The translations under genes were made by a program, and so were the position numbers. Of a stretch of DNA of 64,000 bases, positions 26,675 to 62,595 are shown one piece after another; the first letter of the stretch is position 1; the number at the start of each line of letters is the position of its first letter. The stretch spans positions 3,864 to 67,863 of the forward strand of contig JAIOJS010000312.1 of NCBI GenBank assembly GCA_019911795.1, written 5' to 3'. Below the pieces are notes generated by a model that made no database searches, was not told where the DNA came from, and worked only from the letters and a program-made list of their open reading frames with translations. Origin of the DNA: Thermoanaerobaculia bacterium (lineage in GTDB: Bacteria > Acidobacteriota > Thermoanaerobaculia > Multivoradales > JAIOJS01).

Positions 26675-26698
26675 AGCGGTTATCCGACTGGAGGGTCC

Positions 26699-30080: not shown

Positions 30081-30296
30081 GACGACAAGGTAGAGAAGAC
30101 TTCCGACACTGCAGTTGATCCACAGGACGAAGCAGGCATCGGCAAAGACGATGAGTCCAAAGAGCGCACGTCGGCGGTAGGGCTGCCCGGCGACCAGGGA
30201 AGAGCGAGCACCGCGCCGGAGCGCCGCAATCAGTAGGACGGCATTGAAGACAAGGATGATGAGAGTGGGGATGTTTGACGGCTCCGCGTGGTTTAC

Positions 30297-43997: not shown

Positions 43998-44117
43998 GGG
44001 GGCTCGCGGATTCCCATCGAGTTCCGAGGCAATTTGCGGCGGTGTCGGAACTGAGACACCGAATGTGCTTTTGCGACGTAGTATCGATGATAGCAGCCCC
44101 TCTAGGCGTTGCCCTTT

Positions 44118-44126
44118 GGGGGGGGG
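44118..44126. repeat. G9 (C9 on the coding strand) homopolymer tract upstream of or within the 5' region of the kinase-TPR gene
   Basis: Seen directly: ccctttGGGGGGGGGccagcc. Confidence 0.5.
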
Positions 44127-44397
44127 CCAGCCGCTGCCTTGGAAGCACAGATGTGGCTTCGCAGCCCTCACGACAAATAGCGGGGAGGCGGGGGACAGGC
44201 GGTTTTCGCGCCAATCGCTGCCCGATGGGCTGGTTCGGTTACAATGATAGGGCCTTGGCGGTTCATCCACTGGGGCTGAGCGGGGCGCGGGGATCGAGGA
44301 ACGGTACTGGAGCCCAGGTTCTTGCTGGACGTCTCCAGGGGAGTTTCGGTGATTGTCCACCCCGAGTCCATCCTTCCAACTCCGGTGAGCAAGGGCA

Positions 44398-45147
44398 ATG
44401 AAATTGGCGGAACCCGGCGACCAGGGCGACAAGGTCGTTGAAGCACTCGGTCAACTGAAGTCGCTTCTCGATGACGCTGGGCAACTCGCCCAGGTTCTCG
44501 AATCGAGCGCGAAGTTGGTCGTGCCTCGCCCCGCCAATGCGAGCCAGGTCGAGGCACTGGAGACGCGGTTGAGGGCGGCCGAGAACGATCAGGAGGAGCT
44601 CATCGCTCAGCTCATCGAGGCCGAACGGCAGGCGGGGAAACTGACTAGTCTCTATGTCGCTACCTATCAGCTGCACGTCAGTCTCGACCCGCGCGAGGTT
44701 CAGAGTGCGATCGCCGAGATCACCCGAGATCTACTCGGAGCGGCCAGCTTCGTTCTTCTCATCAAGGAGGAGAACGAGGGTGAGTGTGAAGTTGCGTTGT
44801 CCTTCGGCGTCGACGACGCTACCTCGCGATTCGCCGATGGGACATACCGTGGAGGCGATTCTCTCGTCGATGCGACCCTGACTGATGGCCTGCTTCGTCT
44901 CGAACCGGAGCCCAATTCCGAGGCGACGGCGGTGGTCCCGCTGAGAGTCGAGGATTCGATCGTGGGTGCGCTCGTTATTCTCCGCATGCTCGGCCACAAA
45001 TCAACCCCCCTTTCCGAGGACCGAGACATCCTGGAGCTGTTGGCAGCCCATGCAGCATCGGCCCTTTTCGCCGCAAGGGTCTATTCGCGAACCGACCGCA
45101 AGTTGAAGACGCTACAGGGCCTCGTCAACCTCATTCGCGGTACCTAG
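44398..45147 (+). CDS. Coiled-coil + GAF-domain protein
   Basis: The N-terminus has ~90 aa of heptad-like repeats. A GAF-like fold follows (SLDPREVQSAIAEITRDLLGAASFVLLI...AVVPLRVEDSIVGALVIL). Confidence 0.45.
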   Translation: MKLAEPGDQGDKVVEALGQLKSLLDDAGQLAQVLESSAKLVVPRPANASQVEALETRLRAAENDQEELIAQLIEAERQAGKLTSLYVATYQLHVSLDPREVQSAIAEITRDLLGAASFVLLIKEENEGECEVALSFGVDDATSRFADGTYRGGDSLVDATLTDGLLRLEPEPNSEATAVVPLRVEDSIVGALVILRMLGHKSTPLSEDRDILELLAAHAASALFAARVYSRTDRKLKTLQGLVNLIRGT

Positions 45148-46994: not shown

Positions 46995-48473
46995 GTGATC
47001 CGACCGACGATGATGAAATGTGGAGCGGTTGTGTGGATGTTCCTCGCGGTGCCGATGTTGGCCGAGGTGATTGCAGTGCCCGGCGACAGTGGCACGATTC
47101 AGGGAGCGCTCGACGCCGCCCAGCCCGGCGACGTCGTGGAGGTTGCCACGGGTACCTACTTCGAGAAGGTCGTGTTTCCGAGGAGCGGAACCCTTGGACA
47201 ACCCATCGTGTTGCGGGCCGGTGATGGTGCCCAAGTCGTTCTCGACGGGACTGGTGTCGGGGGAGAGAACATGGTCCTCATCGAATCACGAAGTCACGTG
47301 CAGCTGATCGGTTTCGAGATCCGCAACAATTTGGCGGTCACCGATGGTTCGGGAGTCCGTATTGTGGGCGCGGCGAGTGGGGTAGAGATTCGCAACAACT
47401 CCATCCATGAGATCCGCGGAGAGAATGCGATGGGGATCACGGTGTACGGGACCGAAACGGCTCCCATCGAAGACCTGGTGATTCAGGGCAATGAGATCTT
47501 TGACTGTGAGCCGGCGCCGAGCGAGGCCCTGACCCTCAACGGCAACGTGACGGATTTCGAGGTCAGCGGAAACTTCGTTCACGACGTAGACAACATCGGC
47601 ATCGATTTCATCGGTGGCGAGACCGACATTCAGCCCAATCCCGCCCTGGTGGCTCGCAATGGTGTGGTCCGTGGCAACACCGTGCTCAGGGCTAATTCGA
47701 TCTACGAGGGTGGCTACGCGGGTGGTATTTACGTCGACGGGGGACGCGACATCCTGATCGAGAACAATCGAGTGGGAGAATCCGACCTGGGGATAGAGAT
47801 CGGTGCCGAGAACGCGGGGCTCGTCACCACCGGAATCGTCGTTCGCAACAATGTGCTGCATCACAACGAGCGCGCCGGCATCGTTTTCGGCGGCTACGAG
47901 GCGGCGGTGGGACGGGCCAACGGCAACTCGTTCACCGGCAATACGCTGTTCGCCAACAATACGGTCGGAGAGAACGGTACGGGAACTCACTTCGTGGGCG
48001 GTGGTATCGGCGAGATCTGGGTCCAGTTCGCGGCCGACAATGTCGTCTCTGGCAACATCGTCTTCGCCGGTCCAGAAAACGTCTTCGTCGGATCTTTCGA
48101 TGCCGGCAGCAGTCTGAACAACGCTTTTGACTACAACCTCTATTTCGGCTCCGAGAATGTTTCCGAGGGCGAGTTTAGTCACAACGGGACTGGCTTCGTC
48201 GGTCTCCCGGACTGGCAGTCGGGGACGGGACTCGACTCGAATTCGTTGGCTGCGGATCCACTCCTCGTCGACCCGACCTCGTCGGACTGGCAGCTGGGGT
48301 CTGGTTCGCCGGCCATCGACCGGGGAGACCCCAGTTATGTGGTGAGTCCCGGTGAGTCTGACTTCGGAGGAGGATCCCGGGTGGCCGGGGGACGCATCGA
48401 TATTGGAGCGGAAGAGGTTGATGTTGTCCTGTTCGCCGACGGTTTCGAGACGGGCGACCTATCGGCCTGGTAG
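46995..48473 (+). CDS. Secreted right-handed parallel beta-helix (pectate-lyase-fold) protein ending in a conserved DGFETGDLSAW tail
   Basis: Signal peptide MMKCGAVVWMFLAVPMLAEVIA. Repeated beta-helix rungs of the pattern ...NN.I/V...G..GI.V (IRNNLAVTDGSGVRIVGAASGVEIRNNSIHEI...VRGNTVL...IENNRVGES...VRNNVLHHNERAGIVF). The C-terminal residues are LFADGFETGDLSAW. Confidence 0.6.
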   Translation: MIRPTMMKCGAVVWMFLAVPMLAEVIAVPGDSGTIQGALDAAQPGDVVEVATGTYFEKVVFPRSGTLGQPIVLRAGDGAQVVLDGTGVGGENMVLIESRSHVQLIGFEIRNNLAVTDGSGVRIVGAASGVEIRNNSIHEIRGENAMGITVYGTETAPIEDLVIQGNEIFDCEPAPSEALTLNGNVTDFEVSGNFVHDVDNIGIDFIGGETDIQPNPALVARNGVVRGNTVLRANSIYEGGYAGGIYVDGGRDILIENNRVGESDLGIEIGAENAGLVTTGIVVRNNVLHHNERAGIVFGGYEAAVGRANGNSFTGNTLFANNTVGENGTGTHFVGGGIGEIWVQFAADNVVSGNIVFAGPENVFVGSFDAGSSLNNAFDYNLYFGSENVSEGEFSHNGTGFVGLPDWQSGTGLDSNSLAADPLLVDPTSSDWQLGSGSPAIDRGDPSYVVSPGESDFGGGSRVAGGRIDIGAEEVDVVLFADGFETGDLSAW

Positions 48474-48559
48474 AACCCTCGAGTTGGTAGGAGCGTCTGC
48501 AGGTCGAACGGAGGTCCGAGGGTCCCTGTGGTACATTTCGCCTCTAGCGAAAAACTGCC

Positions 48560-50041
48560 ATGTCGGATCCCTCTGCTCGCCTACGTTTCATCCTTGGCCT
48601 CAAGCTGAAGCAGCTGCGCAGCGAGCACGGCTGGACTCTCAAGGAGGCGGCTTCTCGAGCCGGACTTTCCTTCTCCTACCTCAGTGAGATCGAGAAGGGG
48701 AAGAAATACCCGACCCCGTCCAAACTGTTGGAACTCGCCGAAACCTACGGAGTTCCGTTCGACGATCTCGTCTCGCTGCGCTTGAGCGACGATCTCGCTC
48801 CGATCCAGGAGATTCTCGGATCGGATCTGTTGCGCGAGTTCCCACTCGAGATGTTTGGCCTGCGTCGAGAGGATCTCCTGTCGCTCGCCACCGATGCGCC
48901 CGACAAGGCGGGCGCCCTTGTTGGGGCTCTGCTCGACGTGGGGCGAACGTATGACCTTCAGGTAGAACACTTCCTCCTCGCTGCACTTCGTTCCTACCAA
49001 CAGACTCACCGGAACTACTTTGCCGATCTCGAGGCGGCGGCGCTCGATCTCCGCAAGACCCTGGGTTGGGGACTCGAAGAACCCTTGGATCTTCCGATGC
49101 TTCGTCGCCATCTCGAAGAGCAGTTCGGATTGGCGATAGATACTGACGCACTGTCCGAGGATCCCGACCTCTCAGGTTTTCGGTCAGTGTTTCTGGCGGG
49201 TCCTCCGGCCCGATTGTTGGTCAATGGACGACTCCTGGCGTCGCAGCAGAGGTTTGTCCTCGCTCGTGAGCTCGGCTATCGAGTCCTGAACCTACCCGAG
49301 TACGCTCCGACCTCGTCCTGGCTCCGTATCGAGTCCTTTGAACAGCTCCTCAGCAACTTCAGAGCGTCCTACTTTGCGGGTGCCCTGCTCATGCCGGAGG
49401 AACCGGCGAGGCTGGGGATTCAGCGTCTCTTCGACGCGGCGACCTGGGAACCCGCTCGGGTTCGGGATCTGCGAAGGGAGTTCGACGTCACGCCCGAGAT
49501 GTTGGCCTATCGTCTCACCCAGCTCGCGCCGCGACACCTTGGTCTCGAAGAGCTCTTTTTCCTACGGTTCGCTCGACGCCGCACGACCGGCAGCTACCGA
49601 CTGACCAAGGTGTTCAATCTTTCGCGGGTGCCGGTTCCCCACGGCCTGGGACGGCATGAGCACTATTGCCGCCGCTGGCCAGCGATGCGGCTGCTCGGTC
49701 AGGAGGCCACGGCGGCGTCAGCCGACGTCACCTTGCAGCGAAGTCACTTCGTTACCGAGGACGCAGAGTTCCTTATCCTGACCCAGTCCCGTCCCTTGGC
49801 CCTCAGTGACGACGCGGAGTCCGCAGTGTCGGTGGGCTTTCTGGTCGACCGGTCGTTGCGCTCTCGAGTGAAGTACCTCGAAGACGCCAGCATCCCTAGA
49901 TTCGAGGTGGGTCTAACCTGTGAACGGTGTCCGCTTTCAGAAAGCGACTGCTCGGAGCGGGTTGCTGAGCCGACGCTGCTGCGCGCGAGGCTCCTTCGAG
50001 AAAGGCAGGAACAAGCGTTGATCCGCCTCGGTGTAGTTTAG
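48560..50041 (+). CDS. XRE-family HTH regulator with ImmA/IrrE-like and DUF2083-like C-terminal region (RamB/ScfR-like regulator of acetate metabolism)
   Basis: The N-terminal Cro/C1 HTH is LKQLRSEHGWTLKEAASRAGLSFSYLSEIEKGKKYPTPSKLLELAETYGV. A large ~400-aa C-terminal domain follows. It lies immediately upstream of malate synthase and isocitrate lyase, as for RamB. Confidence 0.65.
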   Translation: MSDPSARLRFILGLKLKQLRSEHGWTLKEAASRAGLSFSYLSEIEKGKKYPTPSKLLELAETYGVPFDDLVSLRLSDDLAPIQEILGSDLLREFPLEMFGLRREDLLSLATDAPDKAGALVGALLDVGRTYDLQVEHFLLAALRSYQQTHRNYFADLEAAALDLRKTLGWGLEEPLDLPMLRRHLEEQFGLAIDTDALSEDPDLSGFRSVFLAGPPARLLVNGRLLASQQRFVLARELGYRVLNLPEYAPTSSWLRIESFEQLLSNFRASYFAGALLMPEEPARLGIQRLFDAATWEPARVRDLRREFDVTPEMLAYRLTQLAPRHLGLEELFFLRFARRRTTGSYRLTKVFNLSRVPVPHGLGRHEHYCRRWPAMRLLGQEATAASADVTLQRSHFVTEDAEFLILTQSRPLALSDDAESAVSVGFLVDRSLRSRVKYLEDASIPRFEVGLTCERCPLSESDCSERVAEPTLLRARLLRERQEQALIRLGVV

Positions 50042-50120
50042 GGTTGCTGGTCGGTTTTGGCTTTCTGGCGTCAGCGAAATTTCGCTTGACACGAAGTTTC
50101 TCTCATGAGAGAGTGTCGCC

Positions 50121-51845
50121 ATGCCGCAATCAGCCAAGCCATCTCTCGCCCTCGGCGAGGCCATCGCTCCGCCTTCCGGGGTAGAGCTCCCGGCGCTCTT
50201 TCGAACCGAAGCTGCATCTCGGGTTCTCGATGTCGAGACCCTCGGACGGTTGGAGCGCCTACACCGAAAGCTGGAACCCATTCGACGGGAGCTTCTCTTC
50301 TGTCGGACGGAGCGACAGCGGCATTGGGATCAAGGTGGGTTGCCCGCTGCTCCCTCTGATGCCGAGGCACGGGCGGGTCGAGATTCTGAGTGGCAGATCG
50401 CGCCTCTGCCGCCAGACCTCCTGAGACGTCGGGTGGAGATCACCGGGCCCGTCGACGACGCCAAGATGGTTCTCAACATGCTCTCGGAGGGCGCCGATGG
50501 TCTGATGGCCGACGCGGCGATGCTCGATTTCGAGGACTCCATGCGACCGACCTGGGCCAACGTTCTGCGCGGACACGAGAACCTTCTGGCCGCGGTGGAG
50601 GGCACTCTCGAGTATCGACGACCGGCCACCACCTCTCGGCCGGCCAAGACCTACCGACTCGACTCCTCTCGAACTCCTACCTTGATGGTGCGATGTCGCG
50701 GACTTCATCTGGATGAGCCGCACGTTCTCGTCGATGGTCAGCCCCTCTCGGCGGGGCTCTTCGACATGGCCCTGGCCTTCCTGCGGTGTGGGCGAACGCT
50801 CGTCGCCCAGGGACGCACCCCAGCCTTCTACGTTCCCAAAATAGAGAGCCACCAGGAAGCCGGCTGGTGGTCTAGCCTCTTTCGTGAGCTGGAGGTAATG
50901 GAGGGATTGCCGACCGGTACCTTGCGGGCCACCTTCTTGATCGAGACCCTACCCGCAGCAATGCAGATGGAAGAGATCCTCTATCGGGTTCGGCTCCATG
51001 CCGCAGGACTGAATGTCGGCCGCTGGGACAAGATCTTCTCGGACATCAGGGTACTCATGGAGCACCCTGATCGGGTCCTGGGAGACCGTGCCACGTTGAC
51101 GATGGACCGTCGTTGGATGCATGGCTATGCCCAGCGACTGATCAACGTTTGTCATCGGCGCGGTGCCTTCGCCATGGGGGGGATGTCGGCGTTGACTCCC
51201 GGACAATCGGGGCAGAAGCGCGAGGCGCAGAGAGCGGGAGTGCTGGCCGACAAGCAGTCCGAAGCGGCGCTGGGCCATGATGGTTGCTGGGTCAGTCATC
51301 CCTACTTCATCGGGACTGCCTTGGCCGCCTTCTCCGACGACCATCAGTTGGACCGGATACCTGAGGCGCCTCCGTTGGATGTCCTGCTGCCAGAGGGAGG
51401 AGGACCGTACACCCTCGAGGGCCTGCGGGAGAATGTTCGCGTCGGCATCGCCTACCTCGAAGGTTGGGAACGCGGCCGGGGCTGCGTTGCCTGGGATGAT
51501 CGGATGGAAGACCTCGCGACGCTCGAGATATCCAGAGTTCAAACCCTGCAGTGGCTACGGCATGCCGTCACCCTGCAAGATGGCCGGACCGTCGATCGCT
51601 CGCTGGTCGAGGAGGTCTTTGCGAAGGAGACGGAGTCGATCCTCGACCCACTCGTGGCAACGGGTGCTTCGAGCCATGCCATCAAGCGTTTTCGTCGGGC
51701 CGCCGCCACCGCCGTCGCCCTCTACACCGAGACACCCCCGAGACCCTTTCTGTCGCTCCTCGAGGACGGAAGGGTAGAGATCGAACCTGTTTCCTGGGGG
51801 GCAGTCTCCCGCAACATTCACTTGGACCACGAGGAGAGGACATGA
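50121..51845 (+). CDS. aceB: Malate synthase A
   Basis: [39 protein letters not shown] contains the catalytic 'DFEDS' region. The protein is ~570 aa. Its stop overlaps the ICL start (ATGA). Confidence 0.8.
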
Positions 51846-53137
51846 CGAACAGGACAAACATCGAATCACCCAACTGCGACGGAGCCATCGAGAGCGGGAC
51901 TGGCGACCGTTGGGCTGGAGTCCAACGTCCATACAGCGCACAGGATGTCTCCCGTCTGTCGAACTCATTCGAGATCGAACACAGCCTGGCGCGGCGTGGT
52001 GCCGAGCGTCTCTGGGCGCTTCTCCATGAGCGCAACTATGTGCCCGCTCTCGGCGCTCTGACCGGCAATCAAGCGATGCAACAAGTCAAAGCCGGACTCG
52101 AGGCGATCTACCTTTCGGGTTGGCAGGTGGCGGCAGACGCCAACCTTGCCGGACAGATGTACCCCGACCAGAGTCTCTACCCGGCCAACTCGGTTCCGGA
52201 GGTGGTTCGAAGGATTAACCGTACACTGATGCGTGCGGACCAGATCGACCGCGCCGAGGGGAGCCATGACGATACCTACTGGATGGCGCCGATCGTCGCT
52301 GATGCGGAAGCGGGATTCGGTGGCGCTCTGCACGCTTTTGAGCTCACCAAGGCGTTGATCGAGGCGGGAGCGGCTGGAATCCACTTCGAGGATCAGCTCG
52401 CCGCCGAGAAGAAGTGTGGACACCTTGGGGGCAAAGTGCTGGTACCAACACAGCAGTTCATCGCGACCCTGACGGCTGCTCGCCTGGCGGCGGATGTCTC
52501 CGGGGTTCCGACCGTTCTGATCGCCCGCACCGATGCGGACAGTGCACGACTGATGACCTCCGACATCGATCCCCGCGATCGTCCCTTCCTGACCGGAGAG
52601 CGCACTCCGGAGGGTTTCTTCAGAACCACGGGAGGAATGGAGGTCGCGATTGCTCGCGGCCTGGCCTACGCTCCTTATGCTGACCTCTTGTGGTGCGAAA
52701 CCTCCAGACCAGACCTCGAGCAGGCGCGGCGCTTTGCCGAGGCGATCCACGATCGGTTTCCTGGCAAGCTCCTCGCTTACAATTGCTCCCCGTCGTTCAA
52801 CTGGAGAAGCAATCTGGACGAAGTCACCATCCGTCGCTTCCAACGGGAGCTGGGTGCGATGGGATACAAGTTCCAGTTTGTGACCTTGGCCGGCTTCCAC
52901 GCCCTCAATTTCGGCATGTTCAGCCTCGCCCACGAGTATCGACGCCGTGGAATGGAAGCCTACTCTGATCTCCAGGAATCGGAGTTTGCGGCCGAGAGCC
53001 TCGGGTATACCGCAACGCGGCATCAACGTGAGGTCGGTACGGGTTACTTCGACCAGGTGCGACAGGTGATCAACGGAGGCGAAGCCACCACTACGGCGAT
53101 GGCGGAGTCGACCGAGACGGCTCAGTTCTCGGTCTAG
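51842..53137 (+). CDS. aceA: Isocitrate lyase
   Basis: The ICL hallmark [13 protein letters not shown] (K-K-C-G-H) is present, with [21 protein letters not shown] and [15 protein letters not shown] moved the start to the ATG at 51842 ([10 protein letters not shown]...), which gives 431 aa. The upstream part of the track ORF overlaps aceB and is rejected. Confidence 0.9.
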
Positions 53138-53228
53138 GCCGTCGAAGTCCTCACGAGAGGCGCGAACACACCACGGCTCGAGTGAGGGTCCCGTTTCTTT
53201 GTCGGTAGCCTCCGTGTACGATTGCCGG

Positions 53229-54437
53229 ATGAGCGAGAACCAAGACTTCGCATCAATGCTGGCTGCTTTCGATCAGGAGCAGGCCGAGGTGCGTCGACCG
53301 GCGCCCAAGGTCGGCGCCAAGATTTCGGGTACCGTTCTGTCTATCGGAGCTGAGGTGGCCTTTGTCGACATCGGCGATAAGGCGGAGGGTGTCCTACCCG
53401 TCGACGAGATGTGCGACGCCGAAGGAGACCTCGCCTACGCGGTGGGGGATTCGATCGAAGCGTTGGTCAGCGGACAGGACCCGGCGGGTGCCTGGCTTCT
53501 CCGCTTGCGGCCGGGACGGGGAGAAACTCTGCCTGAGGAGATTCGGGCGGCTCAGGAGCACGGTCTCCCGGTCGAAGGGATGGTAACGGGCGTCAACAAG
53601 GGCGGTGCCGAGGTGCAAGTTGCCGGCATGCGTGCCTTCTGTCCGATCTCTCAGCTGGATTCCCGCTACGTCGAAGACCCGGCGGTCTTCGTCGGGCAGC
53701 GCCTGCGGTTTCGGGTCACCAAGTTCGAGGCGGGCGGACAGGGTCGTTCGGCCAATCTCGTCCTTTCGCGTCGAGCGCTCCTCGAGGAGGAGGCAGCCAA
53801 GCTGGCGGAGGAGACTCGCAAGACCCTGAAGGCAGGGGTCGTAGTCCGCGGAACCATCACCTCGATCGCTTCGTTCGGCGCTTTTGTCGACCTCGGTGGC
53901 ATCGATGGACTGCTCCACGTCAGCGAAATGAGCTACCAGCGGGTGGAGGATCCGAAGGAGCTCTTCACCGTGGGGCAGGAGGTTGAGGTTCAGGTCGTCA
54001 AGATCGAACGCCGTGAGGCGGGGGACGAGGAGCGCATCTCCCTATCTCTGAAGGCCCTCAAACCCGACCCCTGGTCCACTGCGGCCGAACTATTTCGCGT
54101 GGGATCAGCCGTGAGTGGGACCGTGGTGAAGCTCGAGCCCTTCGGCGCCTTTATCGAGGTCGCGCCGGGAATTCAGGGCCTCGCTCATGTCAGCGAACTG
54201 GGACAGTCGCAGAGGGTTCACCACGCACGGGACGTACTGTCGGTAGGTCAACGGGTCGAAGCCAAAGTGCTCGATATCGACCTCGAGCGCAAGCGTCTTT
54301 CGCTCTCCCTCGGTGCCCTACGGGCCGACGCGGCGGCCGCAGCGGAGGCTGCCGACAAGCAAGCCTTCGAACAGCGGCAAGAGGGAAGTGGCGGATTCGG
54401 CTCCTTGGCTGACTTCTTCCCCGACAACAAGTCCTAG
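53229..54437 (+). CDS. S1 RNA-binding-domain protein (ribosomal protein S1-like, four S1 domains)
   Basis: Four tandem S1 domains of ~70 aa each have the pattern G..V.G.V..I..FGAFV.L.GGIDGLLHVSE (for example GVVVRGTITSIASFGAFVDLGGIDGLLHVSEMS). It is shorter than canonical 6-domain RpsA. I placed the start at the ATG at 53229. Confidence 0.65.
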   Translation: MSENQDFASMLAAFDQEQAEVRRPAPKVGAKISGTVLSIGAEVAFVDIGDKAEGVLPVDEMCDAEGDLAYAVGDSIEALVSGQDPAGAWLLRLRPGRGETLPEEIRAAQEHGLPVEGMVTGVNKGGAEVQVAGMRAFCPISQLDSRYVEDPAVFVGQRLRFRVTKFEAGGQGRSANLVLSRRALLEEEAAKLAEETRKTLKAGVVVRGTITSIASFGAFVDLGGIDGLLHVSEMSYQRVEDPKELFTVGQEVEVQVVKIERREAGDEERISLSLKALKPDPWSTAAELFRVGSAVSGTVVKLEPFGAFIEVAPGIQGLAHVSELGQSQRVHHARDVLSVGQRVEAKVLDIDLERKRLSLSLGALRADAAAAAEAADKQAFEQRQEGSGGFGSLADFFPDNKS

Positions 54438-54462
54438 GGAGCGAAGCTCCGCTAGCGACTCG

Positions 54463-54496
54463 AACTAGGTGTCCTCGGGAACTAGGTGTCCTCGGG
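54463..54496. repeat. Perfect 17-bp tandem direct duplication (aactaggtgtcctcggg x2) in the convergent S1/PilZ intergenic region
   Basis: Seen directly: gAACTAGGTGTCCTCGGGAACTAGGTGTCCTCGGG. A GGAGC-GAA-GCTCC hairpin at 54438..54450 lies just after the S1 stop codon. Confidence 0.6.
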
Positions 54497-54889
54497 CTTC
54501 TTCTCGGTGATGAATCGAACCTCGGTCGTCTCCCGGGAGACTTCGAACAGTCCGCTCAAGATCTCGTGATCCTCGGGGGCGATGTCGAGAAACTCGATGC
54601 CGACGTCGAACTCCCCGTTGGGAAGTGGAGTTTGGTACACCACCCGACCCTTGGCGCTGAAGGCCCGGGGACGCACCGAGATCATCAACTCGACCACTCC
54701 GCCGATGCCGAGGGGGTGGCTCGAGGAAATGCCGCAGCCGCCCAGCCCGACCGTATGGGTCTTGACGAAGCGATCCAATCGCTCTCCCTCGACGGCAGTC
54801 ACCAAGACGGTGTGTCTGGACGCGATCCTCGGGTAGCGGCGGGGTCGACTGTTCATCGAAATCCTCGTGGAGTTTGCTTGATCGTTCAT
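54482..54889 (-). CDS. PilZ-domain (c-di-GMP-binding) protein
   Basis: RPRRYPRIA (RxxxR) followed by VGLGGCGISSSHPLGIGGVVELMISV (D/NxSxGG) form the bipartite PilZ c-di-GMP-binding motif. Confidence 0.55.
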   Translation of the reverse strand: MNDQANSTRISMNSRPRRYPRIASRHTVLVTAVEGERLDRFVKTHTVGLGGCGISSSHPLGIGGVVELMISVRPRAFSAKGRVVYQTPLPNGEFDVGIEFLDIAPEDHEILSGLFEVSRETTEVRFITEKKPEDT

Positions 54890-54948
54890 CGTACCATCGG
54901 CTGGCCTGGTCCGTCAGACCCACTGCAGCCCACTTCTGCCACAGACTC

Positions 54949-55563
54949 CTACGGAGTACGTACTTCGTCCCCCTCGAAGGTCAGCCGAGGATCACTTAGC
55001 TCCAAGAGATCGCCGAGTTCGTAGACGTTCTGATAGCCATAGGTCCACAAGGTGATGAAGGTCGGGATGTTCAGAGCGGCCGCGGGCGCTTTCGTCGCGA
55101 AGGGTGCTCGTCCATCGGAGAAGTTGTTGTTGCAGTAGATCAGGACCGTCTTCGAGGGGTCGCCGATGACCCGGCGCAGACTCTGTTCGGTGAGGTCTGA
55201 GAGGTTCAGGTGCACGGCACCCGCAAGGTGCATCGAGGCGTAGGCGGGGCCGCTGCGGGTGTCGATGAGGATCGTGTCGGGCTCTTGGGCGAGTTCTAGG
55301 AAAGCCTCCACCGGCAGTAAGCGGGCCTCTCTCACCGATTGAACCTCGGCCGAGACTTCGAGAAACGACTGGAAATCGATGGTCTTGGCGGTGGTCTCCG
55401 CCGAGGCGAATGAAGTGACCAAGAACGAAGTAAGGAAGAGGATCGAGAGCAGAGATTGGCGATGCGGGTTTGACATGGTTAGGCCTCCTTGCCTAGAGAG
55501 ATGCAAGGCGCGAGCCACTTTTCTTGTCGGAGACCGAATCGAATGCACCGATCCACCGTCCAC
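54949..55563 (-). CDS. Secreted rhodanese-domain (sulfurtransferase-like) protein
   Basis: Signal peptide LLSILFLTSFLVTSFASA. The rhodanese fold has DTILIDTRSGPAYASMHLAGAVHL and the active-site loop TVLIYCNNNF (Cys). Confidence 0.6.
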   Translation of the reverse strand: MDGGSVHSIRSPTRKVARALHLSRQGGLTMSNPHRQSLLSILFLTSFLVTSFASAETTAKTIDFQSFLEVSAEVQSVREARLLPVEAFLELAQEPDTILIDTRSGPAYASMHLAGAVHLNLSDLTEQSLRRVIGDPSKTVLIYCNNNFSDGRAPFATKAPAAALNIPTFITLWTYGYQNVYELGDLLELSDPRLTFEGDEVRTP

Positions 55564-55600
55564 CGTGGACCGGTGGAGGACAAGCTCCCCCGACCCAGGC

Positions 55601-58600
55601 CTAGCGAATCGCGCCGGGGGCGCCGGTTTCGATCGGCGGGTCGGGTATCACAAGGGGCAGGGGAGGAGCCGCCTCGAGGGCTTCGAGGAGGAGTCGCACT
55701 CCGGCCTCTAGCGAAGGATCTTCGCCGGCCGCCACCTGATCGGGACGGTCCAGGACCTCGACGTCCGGAGCGACGCCCTCATTCTCGACCGCCCATTCGC
55801 CCGCAGGATTGAGGAACCGGAACCGAGGTACGAGGACGGCACCGCCATCCATCAGGTCGGGGTTGCCCGAGATTCCGATCAAGCCGCCCCATGTTCTGGT
55901 GCCGACTAGCTTGCCGAGGCCTTGCTGGCGGAAGTAGTACGGGAAAGCGTCTCCACCGGAGGAGCTATAGCCGTTGATGAGGACCGCTTTCGGCCCCTGG
56001 TGGGAGAAACCGGGAGTGGGAAAGGGAGCCGAGTTGCGCTGGGCCCAATAAGAAAGCAGGGGGCGCTGCAGGAGTTCGATCATCTGGAACGGGATGAAGC
56101 CTCCGCCGTTATAGCGCGCGTCGAGAAGGAGGGCATCCTTGTTGGACTGACCGTAGAAGCCCTTGAACATCTCCCGGTTGCCCTCGATGGCGGTGTTGGG
56201 AAGGTGGATGTAGCCGATGCGACCGCCGGAGAGATCGTTGACCCGCTGGCGTCGCGAAGCGACCCAGTCGAGGTATCGGAGGTTCGTTTCGCTGGCCACC
56301 GGTCGCACCTGCTCTAGCCGTTTCGCGCTAGACCCCGCAGACTGGACCTGAAGGGTGACGACCTGTCCGGCCCGGTTCTCGAGGAGGCGATAGAAGTTAT
56401 CAACCCCGAGGGTGGAGACACCGTCGACCGCCAGGATCAGATCTCCCACGGCGACTCTCACTCCGGGCTCGGTGAGGGGCGACCGAAGGTCGGCATGCCA
56501 GTTCTCGCCGGGGAAGATGTGGTCGATGCGGAAGGCGCCCGAGGTTGAGTCCCTCGTGATCTCCGCGCCGAGAAGACCATTGTCGCGACGCTCGATGCTT
56601 GCATCCGGGGAGCTCTGAACATAGGAGTGTCCCGCATTGAGTTCACCGATCAACTCGCCGAAGATGTAGTCGAGGTCACCCCGATGCCGCACGTGGGCGA
56701 CGAGGGGTTCGTACTTCTCGCGTATCGACAGCCAGTCGAGGCCGTGCATAGCGGGGTCGTAGAACCAGTCACGAGCAATGCGCCAAACGTCGACAAACTC
56801 CTGCGCCCACTCCGCCCGAGGCTCGATCCGTGTCTCGAGACCGTCGAGATTGATGGCGTCCGTAGCGAGGCTCTGTCCGGCGACGAGGTCGATCACCGAC
56901 ACCGTGTCGCCCTTCACCACCACTGCCTTGGTGCCGTTCGCAGAGATCTCATAGCCCCCGGCATCGGGCAGGACCGTGACCTCCTGTCGGCTCTCGAAGT
57001 CGTAGGTGCGCAAGGACGTCATGCCCTCGGCGGTCTTGAGGAAAGCGACGCCATTGGCGAGTCCCTCGAGCGAACGGTAGCTCCCCGACCCACCCGGAAG
57101 AGCCAGGATTCGCCGTTCGAAGCCTTCAACGTCGATCCGTACCGTAGGGATTGCGTCCGAGTTCCCCTCCACGGATGAGGGAACCGAGGTTGGAGCTGCA
57201 GAGGAGGTGGCGGTCACCTCGGGCGGACTGGACTCGGCCGGCTCCTCGTCACTCTCCGGTCGCAGGGGTGCTTCGCCGTCGGCCGAGAGTATCGCGACGT
57301 AGACGCGGGTGGGGTCGGTGTAGAGGAAGTCGAACTCGAAGTCGCTCTGAGTGAGGTTGAAGTCTCGGTTGGAGGTGAAGTACAGGTAGCGCCCCTGACG
57401 ACCCCAGGCGGGATCGCCTTCCTGGGTTTCATCGGAGGTGAGCCGAGCGGTGTTCCCTTGGGTGACATTCCAGACCCACAGGCTCTGCAGTCGAGTGGAC
57501 CCGGTCTTGAGGTAGACCAACCACTCGCTGTCAGGAGACCAGCGGTAGGTGGTGGGATCGGTAAATGGATCACGATCGATCTCGGTGATCTCGCCGCTTG
57601 CTATCTCGAGGACGCGGAGGCGGGCGGTGCGGTCGGCGAAGGCGAGTCTCTTACCATCGGGAGACCACTCGACGGCGTAGCTCCAGGTGGGGTTCTCGGC
57701 ACCATCCCGAGTGATTTGTCGCGGACTCCCGTTGCCGTCGGCGCTACGCAGCCACAGCTCGTATTCTCCCGTCTGATCACTCCAGTAGGCGATCCATCGG
57801 CCGTCGGGAGACCATGCCGGATCTCTCTCGCGAACTCCAGGGGTGCGGGTCAGGTTGCGGATCTCACCTTTCTTGGCCGGGGCGGAGAAGATCTCGCCGC
57901 GGGCTTCGATGGCGACCCGACTGCCGGTCGGAGAGATCGACGCCGAAGCGAGGTTGCCGACGACGTTGCGCCACTGCGGAAGAGCGGAGCCAAAATCGGC
58001 TGCGGCCCTGATGGGGATGCGGCGAGTCTCTCCCGACGACGGTTCGAAGCGCCAGATCCAGCCCCCCGCTTCGTAGACGATGGCATCGCGCCCCGCCGAG
58101 GGCCAGAGCACATCCCACGTTTGGTGAAACGTGACCTGGGTGGGCTCGGTGGCGCCGGGTCCGAGCGACCAGAGGTTGAGAGTTCCGCTGCGGTCGGAGG
58201 TGAAGTAGAGGGTGTCGGCAACCCACAGCGGCTGGTTGTCCGTTCCGATGAAGGAGGTCTTTCGTTCGGCCTTCTTCGACCCGATATCCCAGACCCAAAC
58301 ATCCTGGGCTCGCCCCCCTCGGTATCGCTTCCAGGTCCGATACTCACGGCTGATCGGGGTGTAGACGAACTGGGTGCCGTCGGGAGAGAGCATGCCACCG
58401 CCGCTCTCGGGGGGGCCGAGGGGTGTTTCCATACCGCCACTCGCATCGATCGTGAACGGACGGGTCATCCGCGGTCCCCAGGGGAGGCGATTGCCGAGGA
58501 ACACGATCCGCTGACCGTCGGGAGTCCAGTCGAGCACGCGGTAGTCCCAGCCACCACGTGGTGGCATCGGCCCCACGTCGTTGTACCAGGTCAGCTGGCG

Positions 58601-58945
58601 CAGGTCGCCACCCGCGATGGGCAGAGTGTAGAGCTGGCGATTGCCACCGTACTCGGCCGAGAAGGCCACGGTCTTTCCGTCAGGGGACAGCTTGGGGAAG
58701 ATCTCGAGGCCGGCGTCGGAGGTCAGGCGACGGGCTTCGCCTCCGTTCCGGTCGACCACCCAGATGTCGCCACCGTAGACGAAGGACACGGTGTCGCCCT
58801 CGATATCGGGCATACGGAGGAGTCGAGTCAATCCCTCGGGAGCCGAGGTGGCGTCGGGATCGGTTTGAGCCCAGGATGCGGCGGGCAGAGCGCCGACGAG
58901 AAAAATGGAGGCCAGAAGGAGCCTCGAGACGGTGATTGCAAGCAT
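55601..58945 (-). CDS. Tricorn-protease-like secreted peptidase: N-terminal beta-propellers (TolB/PD40 repeats) plus a C-terminal S41 (C-terminal processing peptidase) domain
   Basis: Signal peptide MLAITVSRLLLASIFLVGALPAASWA. There are multiple PD40 repeats (LSPDGKTVAF, SPDGRWIAYWSD, WSPDGKRLAF). The C-terminal S41-like region has GYIHLPN...LLLDARYNGGG...VLINGYSSSGGDAF. The 1114 aa length matches tricorn core protease. Confidence 0.6.
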   Translation of the reverse strand: MLAITVSRLLLASIFLVGALPAASWAQTDPDATSAPEGLTRLLRMPDIEGDTVSFVYGGDIWVVDRNGGEARRLTSDAGLEIFPKLSPDGKTVAFSAEYGGNRQLYTLPIAGGDLRQLTWYNDVGPMPPRGGWDYRVLDWTPDGQRIVFLGNRLPWGPRMTRPFTIDASGGMETPLGPPESGGGMLSPDGTQFVYTPISREYRTWKRYRGGRAQDVWVWDIGSKKAERKTSFIGTDNQPLWVADTLYFTSDRSGTLNLWSLGPGATEPTQVTFHQTWDVLWPSAGRDAIVYEAGGWIWRFEPSSGETRRIPIRAAADFGSALPQWRNVVGNLASASISPTGSRVAIEARGEIFSAPAKKGEIRNLTRTPGVRERDPAWSPDGRWIAYWSDQTGEYELWLRSADGNGSPRQITRDGAENPTWSYAVEWSPDGKRLAFADRTARLRVLEIASGEITEIDRDPFTDPTTYRWSPDSEWLVYLKTGSTRLQSLWVWNVTQGNTARLTSDETQEGDPAWGRQGRYLYFTSNRDFNLTQSDFEFDFLYTDPTRVYVAILSADGEAPLRPESDEEPAESSPPEVTATSSAAPTSVPSSVEGNSDAIPTVRIDVEGFERRILALPGGSGSYRSLEGLANGVAFLKTAEGMTSLRTYDFESRQEVTVLPDAGGYEISANGTKAVVVKGDTVSVIDLVAGQSLATDAINLDGLETRIEPRAEWAQEFVDVWRIARDWFYDPAMHGLDWLSIREKYEPLVAHVRHRGDLDYIFGELIGELNAGHSYVQSSPDASIERRDNGLLGAEITRDSTSGAFRIDHIFPGENWHADLRSPLTEPGVRVAVGDLILAVDGVSTLGVDNFYRLLENRAGQVVTLQVQSAGSSAKRLEQVRPVASETNLRYLDWVASRRQRVNDLSGGRIGYIHLPNTAIEGNREMFKGFYGQSNKDALLLDARYNGGGFIPFQMIELLQRPLLSYWAQRNSAPFPTPGFSHQGPKAVLINGYSSSGGDAFPYYFRQQGLGKLVGTRTWGGLIGISGNPDLMDGGAVLVPRFRFLNPAGEWAVENEGVAPDVEVLDRPDQVAAGEDPSLEAGVRLLLEALEAAPPLPLVIPDPPIETGAPGAIR

Positions 58946-59109
58946 GGGACTTCTCCGTAGGGTTCCGGGAGATCTGGGAGGAGACCCTGCCAGGTCCTAG
59001 AGCCACTGGGATCGCGCATCGTCGCGTTGATGGTGTGGAACAGCACGTCGGAATGACCCGCCGGGCCGAGGTCTGACTCTACCGTATCCTCGTTGATCAA
59101 CCTCGCTGT

Positions 59110-59544
59110 CTACGGAGGGCAGCCCACGGTAGTCTGGCCTTCGAGTCGCTGCCGGAGGGCAGGGAGGACGGGCCGATCGGCGGGCGCCCACGCGAGGGAG
59201 TCGATGTCGCTAGCCTCGATCCAACGCGAAGCCGAGTGCTCGGCCAACTCCAAGGAACCTCCCGTCACCGAGGCGACATAGATGTCCAGGGTCACGATTC
59301 CTACGACGCCACGACCGAGGTAGTCGCCAACCTCGATTCGTAGCGAGAGTTCTTCGGCGATCTCGCGCGCGAGGGCGAAGCGTGGATCTTCGCCGGCCTC
59401 GACCTTGCCGCCGGGAAACTCCCACGCCAGCGGCAAAGACATGGCGGGTCCCCGTTGCGCGACGAGGCATCGTCCGTCGGCGAGGATGGCGGCGCCGACC
59501 ACGTGCAGTCGAGTTTGAGGAGGAGGTGGCTTCAAAGTTGGCAT
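59110..59544 (-). CDS. NUDIX hydrolase (MutT-like)
   Basis: The Nudix box is GGKVEAGEDPRFALAREIAEELSL (GX5EX7REUXEEXGU). Confidence 0.7.
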   Translation of the reverse strand: MPTLKPPPPQTRLHVVGAAILADGRCLVAQRGPAMSLPLAWEFPGGKVEAGEDPRFALAREIAEELSLRIEVGDYLGRGVVGIVTLDIYVASVTGGSLELAEHSASRWIEASDIDSLAWAPADRPVLPALRQRLEGQTTVGCPP

Positions 59545-59664
59545 CGGAGACCCCAGACTCTACCTTGGGCGGCCGGTTGCAGGCTCCCATGGAAGAGGAG
59601 TCTGGGGAGCTTCCGCGTGAGAACCGCTTCACAGATGGGATGCGGTCGTCTGGAGTAGGGTTCG

Positions 59665-61008
59665 ATGATGAATGCAGGGATAGAGGGACGAAGGCATTCC
59701 CAGGTATGCGGCTCTCTGGTCGGAACTTTGATGTTGTTCGGGCTGGCTCCTGGAGCTGAAGCGCAGCGCTCCTGTCCACCACTCCCGGCTCCTTCGGGCC
59801 CGACGATCGAGGTGATGCCGAACCAGGCGGACCAACTGCGGAGTGTGGTGGCAGGGGCGGCGACCGGTACGACCATTCTGCTCCACGACGGCTACTACGC
59901 GATGGATCAGGGGGACGCTACCTCCCGACTGATCTTCACAGTCGATGGGGTGACCCTGAGGTCGCTCTCCGGGAACCGGGGAGCGGTGGTCCTCGACGGC
60001 GCCTACGCCACCGACGAGCTGGTCTCGATCCAGGCCTCTGATGTTGTCATCGCTTCGATCACGCTAACCCGTGCTTACAACCATCCCATCCACATCTCAG
60101 GCGGGTCCGGTCCGATCGATGGCGTCGTACTCCACGACTTGCATGTCGTCGATGCGGGCGAGCAGGCGATCAAAATCAACCCGGTAGGCGAGGGCTGGGT
60201 CGACGACGGGGTCGTAGAGTGCAGTTTCATCGAATTGACGGATGCCGGACGGCCGCACATTCGCAACAACTGTTACACCGGAGGGGTTGATGCCCATGCG
60301 GCTCAGGGTTGGTGGATCCGGCGCAATAGCTTCCGCGGTTTCTGGTGTCCAGCTGGCCTGTCGGAGCACGCGGTGCATTTCTGGAAGGGGAGTCGAGATA
60401 CGGTGGTCGAGGAGAACCTGATTCTCGACTGTGGACGGGGTATTGGGCTGGGATTGGGTCAGAGCGGTGACGGCCGGAGCTATCCCGACAATCCTTATCC
60501 CGGCGTCGGGTACCTGGGCCACATCGATGGTGTTGTTCGCAACAATTTCATCGCGGCGGCCGATGCCGGTCTCTTCGGATCCGCCGCTGGCTTCGACGCT
60601 GGGATCACTCTCGACCAGGCTCGGATGCCCCTTGTGGTCCACAACACCGTGGCCTCCACCACGGCCCCCTTCTCTTCGATCGAGTGGCGCTTCGGGAACA
60701 CTCTCATCGATCTTGCCAACAACCTCGTAACCCACAACCTGAGGCCCCGCGACGGTGCTCAGGCGATCCTAACCGGGAACCTGGAGGGTGCTCCGCTCCA
60801 ATACTTCGCCGATGTAGCGAGCGCAGACCTCCACCTAGTGACTGGGGATGAGATGCCGGTGGGAATGGGAAGTGCCCTCCCCGCGGGTCAGGCCGACTTC
60901 GACTTCGATGGTCATACTCGCGGAGTGCCGCGTGATGTTGGCGCCGACGAGTGGAGCGAGGCGCTGTTCGCCGACGGTTTCGAGAGTGGCGACACCACCG
61001 CTTGGTAG
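59665..61008 (+). CDS. Secreted parallel beta-helix protein ending in a conserved DGFESGDTTAW tail
   Basis: Signal peptide GSLVGTLMLFGLAPGAEA (the exact start is uncertain). Beta-helix rungs include VVIASITLTRAYNHPIHISGGSGPIDGVVLHDLHVVDAGEQAIKIN and VVRNNFIAAADAGLF. The C-terminal residues are LFADGFESGDTTAW. Confidence 0.55.
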   Translation: MMNAGIEGRRHSQVCGSLVGTLMLFGLAPGAEAQRSCPPLPAPSGPTIEVMPNQADQLRSVVAGAATGTTILLHDGYYAMDQGDATSRLIFTVDGVTLRSLSGNRGAVVLDGAYATDELVSIQASDVVIASITLTRAYNHPIHISGGSGPIDGVVLHDLHVVDAGEQAIKINPVGEGWVDDGVVECSFIELTDAGRPHIRNNCYTGGVDAHAAQGWWIRRNSFRGFWCPAGLSEHAVHFWKGSRDTVVEENLILDCGRGIGLGLGQSGDGRSYPDNPYPGVGYLGHIDGVVRNNFIAAADAGLFGSAAGFDAGITLDQARMPLVVHNTVASTTAPFSSIEWRFGNTLIDLANNLVTHNLRPRDGAQAILTGNLEGAPLQYFADVASADLHLVTGDEMPVGMGSALPAGQADFDFDGHTRGVPRDVGADEWSEALFADGFESGDTTAW

Positions 61009-61122
61009 GCGGCAGCCGAGTCCAAGCTGCCGGTCGACCGGTCATTCCTTTCGCCCCCCAGCTGGCCCTGACGCCTTAGGCGCCGAAGCGCCTGGGGTAG
61101 AAGGGTCAGGTCGGCTCGGGGC

Positions 61123-62595
61123 TCAGTTCCAGGCACCGATATCACCCGACTCGAAGCCGTCGACAAAGAGGGCCGTCCCATTCCAGAAGCAGCCGTCGCC
61201 GTTGTGGATGCAGTCGATCCGGCTCGAAGGGCCGCGGATGATGTAGAGCTCGCCGATGGAATCCTCAGCCAGGCCGTAAGTGCCGTGGTAGCCGCTCGCC
61301 CAGCACTCCGAGGCGATGGCGGACGGGTTGGCGGGATCGAGGGTCGTGGTCTTCCACAGCTGACCACAGGCAGGGTCGCCGTAGATGTAGTCACCGGCTA
61401 GCGAGGGAACGAAGCTGCCTCGGTATCGGTAGCCGCCCATGATCGAGTCCCAGCCGCCGTTGTAGTGGCAGAGGACCGGGTCCCAGTGGTTGATCGAGTT
61501 GATTCCGGTCTTGCGCGGGAAGAGGCAGCTGGTGCCGGTGTCCATGGGGCAGCCCCCGGTCGCACAGGACGATTCATCATTTGCGGCGGTTTCACAGCCC
61601 TCGCGACAGACCCAGCCGAAATTGACGGGGGCCGGAGTCGACACCGCCTTGAGGTTGATCTCCTCCCACTTGTTCTGTCCGACGTCTCCGATGTACAGGT
61701 CACCGGTCGAACGGTCGAAGCTGAAGCGGAAGGGATTGCGGAGTCCAAGCGACCAGACCTCGTCGCAGCTCGCCGCTCCCTGGCCGGTGAAGGGGTTGGT
61801 AGAGGGCACGGTGTACGGACCCCCAGCGCCGACGCCACAGTTGTCGGGAGCGGTGGCCGAACCGTCGATCCCACGGACGTCGATCCGCAGCATTTTGCCC
61901 GCGAGGGTGTCGATCCGTTGGCCGTCGCCGTTGGCGCCGGCGCCATTGTCGCAACTGCTGCCGCCGTCGCCGGTCGAGATGTAGAGGAACCCGTCCGGTC
62001 CGAAGGCGAGCCAGCCACCGTTGTGGTTCGAGGCCGGATGATCGATGACGAGGAGAAGGGTCGCTGATCCGAGATTGCCGACATCGGGGTCGCCGGCCGA
62101 GCGTTCGTAGCGGGCGATGACCACATCGCCTTGTTCGCTTCCGGCTCCGGCCCGGGTGTAGAAGACGTAGATCCTGCCGTTCATTGAATAGTCGGGGTCC
62201 ATGGCGAGGGCGAGAAGACCCCTCTCACCGCCGGCGAGGACTGGACCGCCGATGTCGTCACGGAGGTCGAGAAAGGGAGTCGGGAGCATGGCGCCCGCGG
62301 CGCCGTCCCAGACTAGGATGGCGCCCTCCTGGGTGGCGATCAGGTAGCGTCCCCTACCGTCGGCGGGGTCGACAAAGGCGATGGGAGTGTCCATTCCGGC
62401 CGGGAAGTCTCCGGACTCGACGAGGGGGGAGATGGTGACGGGAGCCGATGGCGTGCAGGTGGCACTGCAGTTGTCGGTGTAGCAACTCGTCTCCGCGAGA
62501 CCGGGGGAGGCGATTCCCGAAGTCCCGGCGAGGAAGGCGACGAGGGCGAGAACGTGGGGACGAAGGATGTGAGAGTAGAGCTGCTTGCTGACCAT
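61123..62595 (-). CDS. Secreted PQQ-dependent sugar-dehydrogenase-like beta-propeller (soluble glucose/sorbosone dehydrogenase family) ending in a conserved DGFESGDIGAWN tail
   Basis: Signal peptide LALVAFLAGTSGIASPGLA. The SGDH signature is HNGGWLAFGPDGFLYISTGDGG, with RGLLALAMDPDY and GDLYIGDVGQNKWEEIN. The C-terminal residues are LFVDGFESGDIGAWN. Confidence 0.6.
   Translation of the reverse strand: MVSKQLYSHILRPHVLALVAFLAGTSGIASPGLAETSCYTDNCSATCTPSAPVTISPLVESGDFPAGMDTPIAFVDPADGRGRYLIATQEGAILVWDGAAGAMLPTPFLDLRDDIGGPVLAGGERGLLALAMDPDYSMNGRIYVFYTRAGAGSEQGDVVIARYERSAGDPDVGNLGSATLLLVIDHPASNHNGGWLAFGPDGFLYISTGDGGSSCDNGAGANGDGQRIDTLAGKMLRIDVRGIDGSATAPDNCGVGAGGPYTVPSTNPFTGQGAASCDEVWSLGLRNPFRFSFDRSTGDLYIGDVGQNKWEEINLKAVSTPAPVNFGWVCREGCETAANDESSCATGGCPMDTGTSCLFPRKTGINSINHWDPVLCHYNGGWDSIMGGYRYRGSFVPSLAGDYIYGDPACGQLWKTTTLDPANPSAIASECWASGYHGTYGLAEDSIGELYIIRGPSSRIDCIHNGDGCFWNGTALFVDGFESGDIGAWN

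Follow-up and report, generated by a model that had tools for sequence, protein, structure and literature searches.

The C-terminal domain (CTD) of the type IX secretion system (T9SS) folds into an Ig-like unit of roughly 80-100 aa. The lipoprotein export signal of Bacteroidota and CsgA N22, on the other hand, are short non-membrane motifs on Sec-exported proteins, linked to an outer-membrane step; both are N-terminal only and lineage-specific. In Acidobacteriota, which are among the most abundant bacteria of soils and sediments and are poorly cultured, protein sorting is largely unknown. Prokaryotic C-terminal sorting signals have been characterized by seven attributes (Haft), and the surface-protein domains termed "choice-of-anchor" are anchored by any of the LPXTG, PEP-CTERM or T9SS signals. 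Here we describe a short acidic peptide, called the tag in the following, that ends three secreted proteins encoded on a 64,000-nucleotide stretch of DNA from a Thermoanaerobaculia bacterium of the phylum Acidobacteriota (contig JAIOJS010000312.1, positions 3,864 to 67,863; hereafter the window). Judged from sequence comparison, the motif is real, abundant and maintained by purifying selection as a peptide module. Our preferred reading, to which we assign a probability of roughly 0.45, is that of a portable recognition tag outside the cytoplasm, which would be bound by a shared envelope partner and would thereby give its bearers a common fate.

The window encodes two beta-helix proteins and one propeller that bear the tag (Table 1). 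Their tails share LF[AV]DGFE[ST]GDxxAW with an optional final N, and the stop codon lies 0-1 aa past the W in all three open reading frames (ORFs). A six-frame regular-expression scan of the window located the motif at these three sites only, each directly followed by a stop codon, and a search with the back-translated pattern that allowed up to two mismatches gave three matches against 0.00 expected in 100 shuffles. The near-identical C-terminal peptides reported in a preliminary description of this DNA are thus present and end as described. The same applies to the N-terminal signal peptides on all three bearers, which by eye are of the Sec type, and to the domain identities, which agree with Pfam and NCBIfam. 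Protein 1 matches Beta_helix (E = 2.4e-12) and has a choice-of-anchor Q domain directly ahead of the tail, protein 3 matches GSDH (E = 2.5e-28), and protein 2 agrees weakly, its Beta_helix match (E = 7.8e-4) being below the cutoff. The folds of the bearers had been called unrelated. This is correct for the GSDH protein, whose similarity to either beta-helix protein is confined to the 14-15-aa tail, but proteins 1 and 2 are distantly paralogous (25% identity over 187 aa, E = 1.4e-9). Near-identity of copies 1 and 2 at the DNA level, also proposed earlier, likewise holds in part: a run of 22 identical nucleotides exists, but the three tails overall agree pairwise at 31/39, 28/39 and 26/39 positions. 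Because the run uses the commonest codons of the 123 listed family tails (TTC GCC GAC GG. TTC GAG), it reflects codon bias rather than a recent duplication of DNA. Genes 2 and 3 are convergent, and their tag-coding ends face each other over a 114-bp gap (61006..61125). Protein 1 is identical to a protein at NCBI from a metagenome-assembled genome of Thermoanaerobaculia (P0005).

That selection acts on the peptide, and that the tails are not a simple DNA repeat, became clear from the family as a whole. With each species represented by one genome, a scan for DNA that encodes F[AV]DGFE[ST]GDxxAW returned at least 123 matches in at least 118 loci and at least 70 assemblies. Among the matches listed, 119 of 123 39-mers are distinct DNA versions, the Ser position is encoded 79 times by TCN and 31 times by AGY, and 34 tails with an identical peptide have a mean nucleotide identity of only 84%. 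Synonymous codons therefore vary freely while the peptide stays fixed. Conservation was also assessed in 31 tagged orthologs of protein 1, which were gathered by whole-protein homology and hence independently of the motif pattern. In these proteins the residues F, D, G, F, E, G and W are conserved at 97-100%, above the mean of 76% for the protein body, and the 4-5 linker residues are conserved at 23-42%.

Lineages labelled Acidobacteriota, mostly Thermoanaerobaculia and Holophagae, contribute 55 of the 70 assemblies and 96 of the 123 matches among those listed, although these proportions are approximate, and a single assembly has up to six of the listed matches. A stop codon follows within 17 codons of the W in 110 of the 123 listed matches. 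Seven listed matches come from diderm phyla outside Acidobacteriota (labelled Deltaproteobacteria, Polyangiaceae, Gemmatimonadota and Kangiella), and all seven are C-terminal. When 1.84 billion cluster representatives were searched exhaustively with a profile, 2,074 protein clusters were retrieved at E ≤ 1e-3. Among the best 150 profile matches are 56 single-copy proteins, 49 of which have the motif at most 15 aa from the C-terminus; four further examples were obtained from a protein search with concatenated tails. The motif is thus present in many relatives and is not the product of a recent local duplication. Its occurrence in viral sequences is restricted to five contigs of the 2.9 million in IMG/VR (L119-L123): one, with a GC content of 40%, has the motif at the start of a domain (see below), three (62-65% GC) encode C-terminal tags, and in the fifth the motif runs off the end of the locus. 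Two other loci depart from the usual arrangement. In L041 the tag-bearing ORF continues into a sequence resembling an extracytoplasmic function (ECF) sigma factor, as the result of either a fusion or an error in the assembly, and in L081 the motif is located upstream of an RHS/YD-repeat-like region.

The core of the family is [ILV]-F-x-D-G-F-E-x-G-x4-W, usually followed by S-x-x-V-P. Of 102 tails, 96 have I, L or V at position -1, which was not fixed by the search pattern, and upstream of it no conservation is seen. Exactly five residues follow the W in 55 of these tails (S at +1 in 45, V at +4 in 33 and P at +5 in 47), and the last residue is most often Pro (61 of 102). The ending in AW, regarded earlier as typical of the tail, is found in the window copies, but with only nine of the 102 tails ending exactly at W it is a minority form of the family. 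In some genomes several tags end exactly at W (L005 and L057 in JAUIDB01; L065, L089 and L095 in JAAELT01). All three window tags end at W or WN, whereas most genomes add S-x-x-V-P; the extension therefore seems dispensable and may vary by lineage.

A set of 80 complete bearers spans 65 Pfam families, which include S8, M14 and C25 peptidases, PAD_porph, InhA-like MAM, FG-GAP, LVIVD, BNR, beta-helix, GSDH and GH8. A signal peptide is obvious in 63 of the 80 according to a crude hydrophobicity test; secretion by the Sec pathway, for which the preliminary description had asked whether it is universal, is thus probable for most bearers, but not all of them scored. NCBIfam assigns choice-of-anchor domains of types B, J, O and Q to the bearers, as well as models of myxosortase- or rhombosortase-dependent M36 peptidases. 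The orthologs of protein 1 share a junction, D[IV]G[AV]DE, after which 31 of them continue into the tag. At the same junction other orthologs have an ending of the form PEP...hydrophobic...RRR (P0063, P0100), a transmembrane (TM) segment plus Arg (P0059), or Cys-rich repeat extensions. As far as such alignments can tell, the tag occupies the slot in which related proteins carry recognized anchors. A regular-expression search for PEP-CTERM in the tagged loci found none. The tail had no match to any model of Pfam or NCBIfam, those for -CTERM and T9SS signals included, whether in the window proteins, in the 80 bearers or in isolated tails even at E ≤ 10, and the earlier statement that the tail differs from known C-terminal signals is therefore retained. 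In literature searches the motif strings were absent, and nothing relevant on sorting signals of Thermoanaerobaculia or Acidobacteriota was retrieved. The tag on the three window proteins probably marks its bearers for a shared sorting or docking step.

Structure prediction is consistent with an accessible tail. In an AlphaFold2 (AF2) model of protein 1, built with an alignment of 46 ortholog sequences, the beta-helix is confident (mean predicted local distance difference test score, pLDDT, of 91), whereas the score drops through 72 and 56 to 47 over the last ~22 residues, which have no secondary structure; residues 1-20 also score low (51-58). The tail is thus modelled as a conserved free linear motif that is not packed on its own domain. 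This bears on a cis-acting role, in which the peptide would cap an edge strand of its passenger domain or serve as its intramolecular chaperone. The short distance of only 4-6 residues between the last beta-helix turn and the tag in protein 1 would suit such an element. However, the bearers have unrelated folds (beta-helices, propellers, peptidases and hydrolases), the predicted tail remains unpacked despite the ortholog alignment, and orthologs swap the tag for membrane anchors, all of which makes a function in cis very improbable.

The C-terminal position of the tag, although predominant, has exceptions that are a caveat to a purely C-terminal view. In L105 and in L114, a PETase-like hydrolase, the tag directly follows the signal peptide, and in L027 it is internal. 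Naked tags also occur at the C-terminus as two to four tandem units with a period of ~21-24 aa (P0141, P0153, P0156, P0164, P0169, P0188 and others), with four units in P0188. Given these N-terminal, internal and tandem occurrences, a free C-terminus and cleavage are probably both dispensable for the tag, and we count this apparent independence of position in favour of a portable tag. The same features have been considered for a self-sufficient mini binding module, in which the peptide itself would bind Ca2+, a polysaccharide of the surface or matrix, or lipopolysaccharide, and would so tether exoproteins to the envelope or the biofilm matrix with no protein receptor involved. Such a module would profit from the strongly acidic character of the peptide (D, E, D) and its invariant aromatic residues (F, F, W), its tandem repeats resemble cell-wall-binding units, and in other phyla the motif is associated with a lectin/lyase-type fold. 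A single unit of 14 aa would be very small for specific glycan binding, however, and known families of Ca2+- or carbohydrate-binding proteins gave no match, so that we regard this explanation as distinctly unlikely.

Unexpectedly, the tag is identical in sequence to the leader motif of a lectin/lyase-type domain that has no annotation. In all five listed genome matches labelled Actinomycetota or Chloroflexota, the motif precedes a domain of ~190 aa. The best 150 profile matches contain 93 multi-copy proteins with the same arrangement, with a spacing of ~190-300 aa between copies and a remainder of 170-195 aa after the last one. The leader, FADGFESG(D/N)LSAW, is preceded by a Pro/Thr linker and has an identical core; the 13-mer is found in L016, L024, L028, L082 and L101 and in the multi-copy proteins P0125-P0147. 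A profile of the domain that excluded the motif detected 552 proteins, which have no Pfam annotation for it, and the motif stands ahead of every domain copy that could be judged (86 of 86). The domain consensus, ...YRARFYFDPNSI...LWIDG...DNDTRR.D.VRLGAV.G.D.GT.G.YYFDAFESR (L028, L101, L112; P0275-P0394), ends in a predicted strand, YFDAFES, that resembles the motif. According to AF2 and Foldseek the domain is a ConA-like jelly roll most similar to the PL20 glucuronan lyase 2ZZJ (TM-score 0.67), with PL7 and PL18 alginate lyases as the next matches; weak Polysacc_lyase and Laminin_G matches agree with this assignment, and a PDB sequence search with the actinobacterial domain gave no match. The tag and the jelly-roll domain family are two gaps in current annotation.

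The motif was also considered as an integral first strand of the jelly roll, and this was downgraded: since its pLDDT is ~35, ahead of a confident core of ~90, it cannot be called a strand of the domain. The idea that the motif starts a longer domain applies to Actinomycetota, Chloroflexota and L112, a Thermoanaerobaculia protein in which the motif is fused to the jelly roll. It does not apply to the window copies, which are not truncated domains because stop codons follow them directly and there is neither room nor a reading frame for a hidden domain; a hidden Markov model (HMM) of the jelly-roll body found no match anywhere in the window. The fused forms might nevertheless suggest that the tails are a vestige, the functionless first segment left over from a lost C-terminal ConA-like domain. 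More than 100 independent bearers of unrelated architectures, a core conserved more strongly than the protein body, a peptide that stays fixed under free synonymous change, and a conserved S-x-x-V-P end that the domain form lacks render decay a scarcely credible explanation.

A functional connection between the two forms would be provided by docking in the manner of dockerin and cohesin or of donor-strand complementation, with the motif, in Acidobacteriota, split off from the ConA-like domain, distributed among many exoproteins and binding in trans to a motif-less copy of the domain on a surface protein. The constant association of the identical 13-mer with the domain, the strand-like resemblance of YFDAFES, the existence of the fused form in Thermoanaerobaculia, and protein P0129, which combines one motif-plus-domain unit with a naked C-terminal motif, are in line with such an interaction, and tandem naked tags would fit avidity binding. 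However, AF2 leaves the motif undocked even in cis, and the domain-body HMM recognized no motif-less copy in the window or in ~1 Mb of tagged loci. Database entries that appear "headless" were examined as candidate receptors and rejected, as most of them come from contigs of ~1-3 kb and they resemble gene calls that were cut short. Docking onto the jelly roll is therefore considered unlikely, albeit less so than a receptor-free module.

The genomic neighbourhood was compared by all-against-all clustering of 3,197 ORFs from the 118 listed tagged loci and the window. Recurrent neighbours belong to abundant paralog families only, namely Ser/Thr kinase-TPR proteins, hybrid histidine kinases and sulfatases. 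Ser/Thr protein kinase-TPR genes adjoin tagged genes in 15 of 119 regions (14 of 118 loci, and the window), a recurrence that probably reflects just the abundance of these paralogs in the genomes concerned. The preliminary description had proposed a tricorn/S41 protease encoded near gene 2 as a speculative partner, and the tag might accordingly be a recognition or degradation tag for this C-terminal-processing enzyme. The protease is real, and PDZ domains bind C-terminal peptides. However, none of the 118 tagged loci contains a homolog, N-terminal, internal and tandem tags offer no free C-terminus, the terminal residues vary (W, WN, VP), and the surrounding genes have no link to sorting. The protease is thus not supported as the partner of the tag, and its involvement has very little probability. 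Further neighbours in the window encode a DUF4388 protein, an XRE/M78 regulator, malate synthase, isocitrate lyase, an S1-domain protein, and PilZ, rhodanese, NUDIX and SpoIIE phosphatase proteins. The regulator, which combines an XRE-type helix-turn-helix (HTH) with an M78 (IrrE-like) domain, is encoded directly upstream of the malate synthase and isocitrate lyase genes, which form a glyoxylate-shunt pair. One segment of the window has a GC content of 0.57-0.58, compared with about 0.62-0.64 elsewhere, and may be a foreign island.

Table 1. Location of the tagged genes, their signal peptides and tags, and other features of the window (positions refer to the 64,000-nucleotide window; signal peptides were read by eye).
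Feature	Position	Strand	Description
Tagged gene 1	46995..48473	+	Right-handed beta-helix protein, 492 aa, secreted; choice-of-anchor Q domain at aa 432-475
Gene 1 signal peptide (Sec, approximate)	46995..47066	+	MIRPTMMKCGAVVWMFLAVPMLAE...
Tag copy 1	48429..48470	+	LFADGFETGDLSAW, then stop codon 48471-48473
Tagged gene 2	59665..61008	+	Beta-helix-like protein, 447 aa, secreted; distant paralog of gene 1
Gene 2 signal peptide (Sec, approximate)	59665..59763	+	…GSLVGTLMLFGLAPGAEA
Tag copy 2	60964..61005	+	LFADGFESGDTTAW, then stop codon 61006-61008
Tagged gene 3	61123..62595	-	Glucose/sorbosone-dehydrogenase-type beta-propeller, 490 aa, secreted; convergent with gene 2
Gene 3 signal peptide (Sec, approximate)	62494..62595	-	…HVLALVAFLAGTSGIASPGLA
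Tag copy 3	61126..61170	-	LFVDGFESGDIGAWN, then stop codon 61125-61123; codons differ from copies 1 and 2
Tricorn/S41 protease	55601..58945		PD40, Tricorn_C1, PDZ_Tricorn and Peptidase_S41 domains; 0.7 kb from gene 2
Ser/Thr protein kinase-TPR gene	41253..44432	-	
XRE-HTH plus M78 regulator	48560..50041		
Malate synthase	50121..51845		
Isocitrate lyase	~51845..53137		
Segment of lower GC content	24001..32000		

For the portable recognition tag the following sequence of events may be envisaged. The bearers would be exported by Sec and lose their signal peptides, as their N-termini suggest. The passenger would then fold while the acidic-aromatic tail stays exposed and flexible, as in the AF2 prediction. 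An envelope component encoded away from the cargo genes would bind the tail as a linear peptide or as an induced hairpin, and the outcome might be either retention on the cell surface or in the matrix, or passage across the outer membrane. The tag would functionally take the place that PEP-CTERM, LPXTG, MYXO-CTERM or T9SS signals have in related proteins and, unlike these, would never be embedded in a membrane.

Several observations weigh against this reading. The neighbourhood comparison of 118 tagged loci and the window revealed no dedicated recurrent neighbour gene, and no partner was found; a motif-less receptor domain is likewise missing from the window and the ~1 Mb of tagged loci searched. 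Two of the attributes listed by Haft are absent: the acidic tail of 14-19 aa, with 0-5 aa after the W and no hydrophobic stretch behind it, has no TM helix (attribute 4), and its terminal residues, W, WN or S-x-x-V-P, do not form a basic cluster (attribute 5). Comparison with PEP-CTERM at the junction of protein 1 orthologs is also less firm than it appears, because the PEP-CTERM HMM remains below threshold on P0063 and P0100, which can thus be called PEP-CTERM-like on architecture only. Finally, the identical 13-mer is a constant N-terminal element of the ConA-like domain in monoderm phyla. A sorting role ahead of every single domain makes little sense, and the motif may instead be structural or ligand-binding.

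A more far-reaching version of the portable tag, which we consider rather doubtful, would make it the cargo half of an undescribed two-component system for surface display or outer-membrane export in Acidobacteriota and some Myxococcota and Gemmatimonadota. If this were true, a dedicated receptor or translocon would recognize dozens of exoenzymes and adhesins in each genome through a membrane-free peptide of 14-19 aa. A ConA-like domain that the peptide completes or binds to might be this receptor, and the sorting principle would be unlike every sortase-type, T9SS or type I secretion system (T1SS) signal. More generally, the surface or secreted proteome of these organisms would become definable directly from sequence through a tag that proteases, carboxypeptidases, glycosidases, propellers and beta-helix adhesins have in common. 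Such a tag would also imply a recognition partner that could be found by phylogenetic profiling, and a peptide of 14-19 aa might be useful as a very compact tag for protein display.

Among known systems, the tripartite signals (LPXTG/sortase, PEP-CTERM/exosortase, GlyGly-CTERM/rhombosortase and MYXO-CTERM/myxosortase) resemble the tag in their C-terminal position, their copy number and their invariant motif. Signal peptides, otherwise unrelated bearers and a slot after choice-of-anchor domains are further shared features. In terms of the attributes compiled by Haft, the tag has a C-terminal location (1), several copies per genome (2; three in the 64-kb window and up to six per assembly among the matches listed), an invariant signature (3), signal peptides (6) and bearers that are otherwise unrelated (7). 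In contrast to the tripartite signals, the tag is acidic, comprises only 14-19 aa, also occurs in N-terminal, internal and tandem positions, and no cognate intramembrane protease or transpeptidase was found. Because the TM helix and the basic cluster are missing, the tag does not belong to the tripartite class, even though it uses the same slot.

The CTD of T9SS is similar to the tag in being a non-membrane C-terminal signal on Sec-exported cargo of diderm bacteria. The cargo itself overlaps as well, since C25 gingipain-like, PAD_porph, S8 and M14 proteases and adhesin-like repeats are among the tag bearers. However, the tag is a linear motif of 14-19 aa, and CTD models matched neither the window proteins nor the 80 bearers nor isolated tails. 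The lipoprotein export signal of Bacteroidota and CsgA N22 differ from the tag in sequence, and there is no evidence that links the systems. A beta-signal of outer-membrane proteins, which ends a beta-barrel with an aromatic residue and alternating hydrophobic positions, was considered and rejected: the last residue of the tails is mostly Pro (61 of 102), positions 3, 5 and 7 from the end of the window tails are polar or acidic, and the bearers are soluble-domain proteins.

The leader of the PL20/PL7-like jelly roll has the same core as the tag, but is followed by a beta-sandwich of ~190 aa and is repeated before each copy of it, whereas the window tag meets a stop codon after the W. Dockerin-cohesin pairs, S-layer homology (SLH) domains and choline- or cell-wall-binding repeats offer another parallel, because they too are portable modules on unrelated exoenzymes and are sometimes arranged in tandem, as are the ~21-24-aa units of the tag. 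These modules are larger folded units with known partners, whereas the tag has no Pfam match. By analogy, non-covalent docking would be a plausible mechanism for the tag. In kind, the tag falls among the portable C-terminal sorting and display tags; its architecture differs from theirs in its shortness, its acidic character, the lack of a TM segment and its independence of position.

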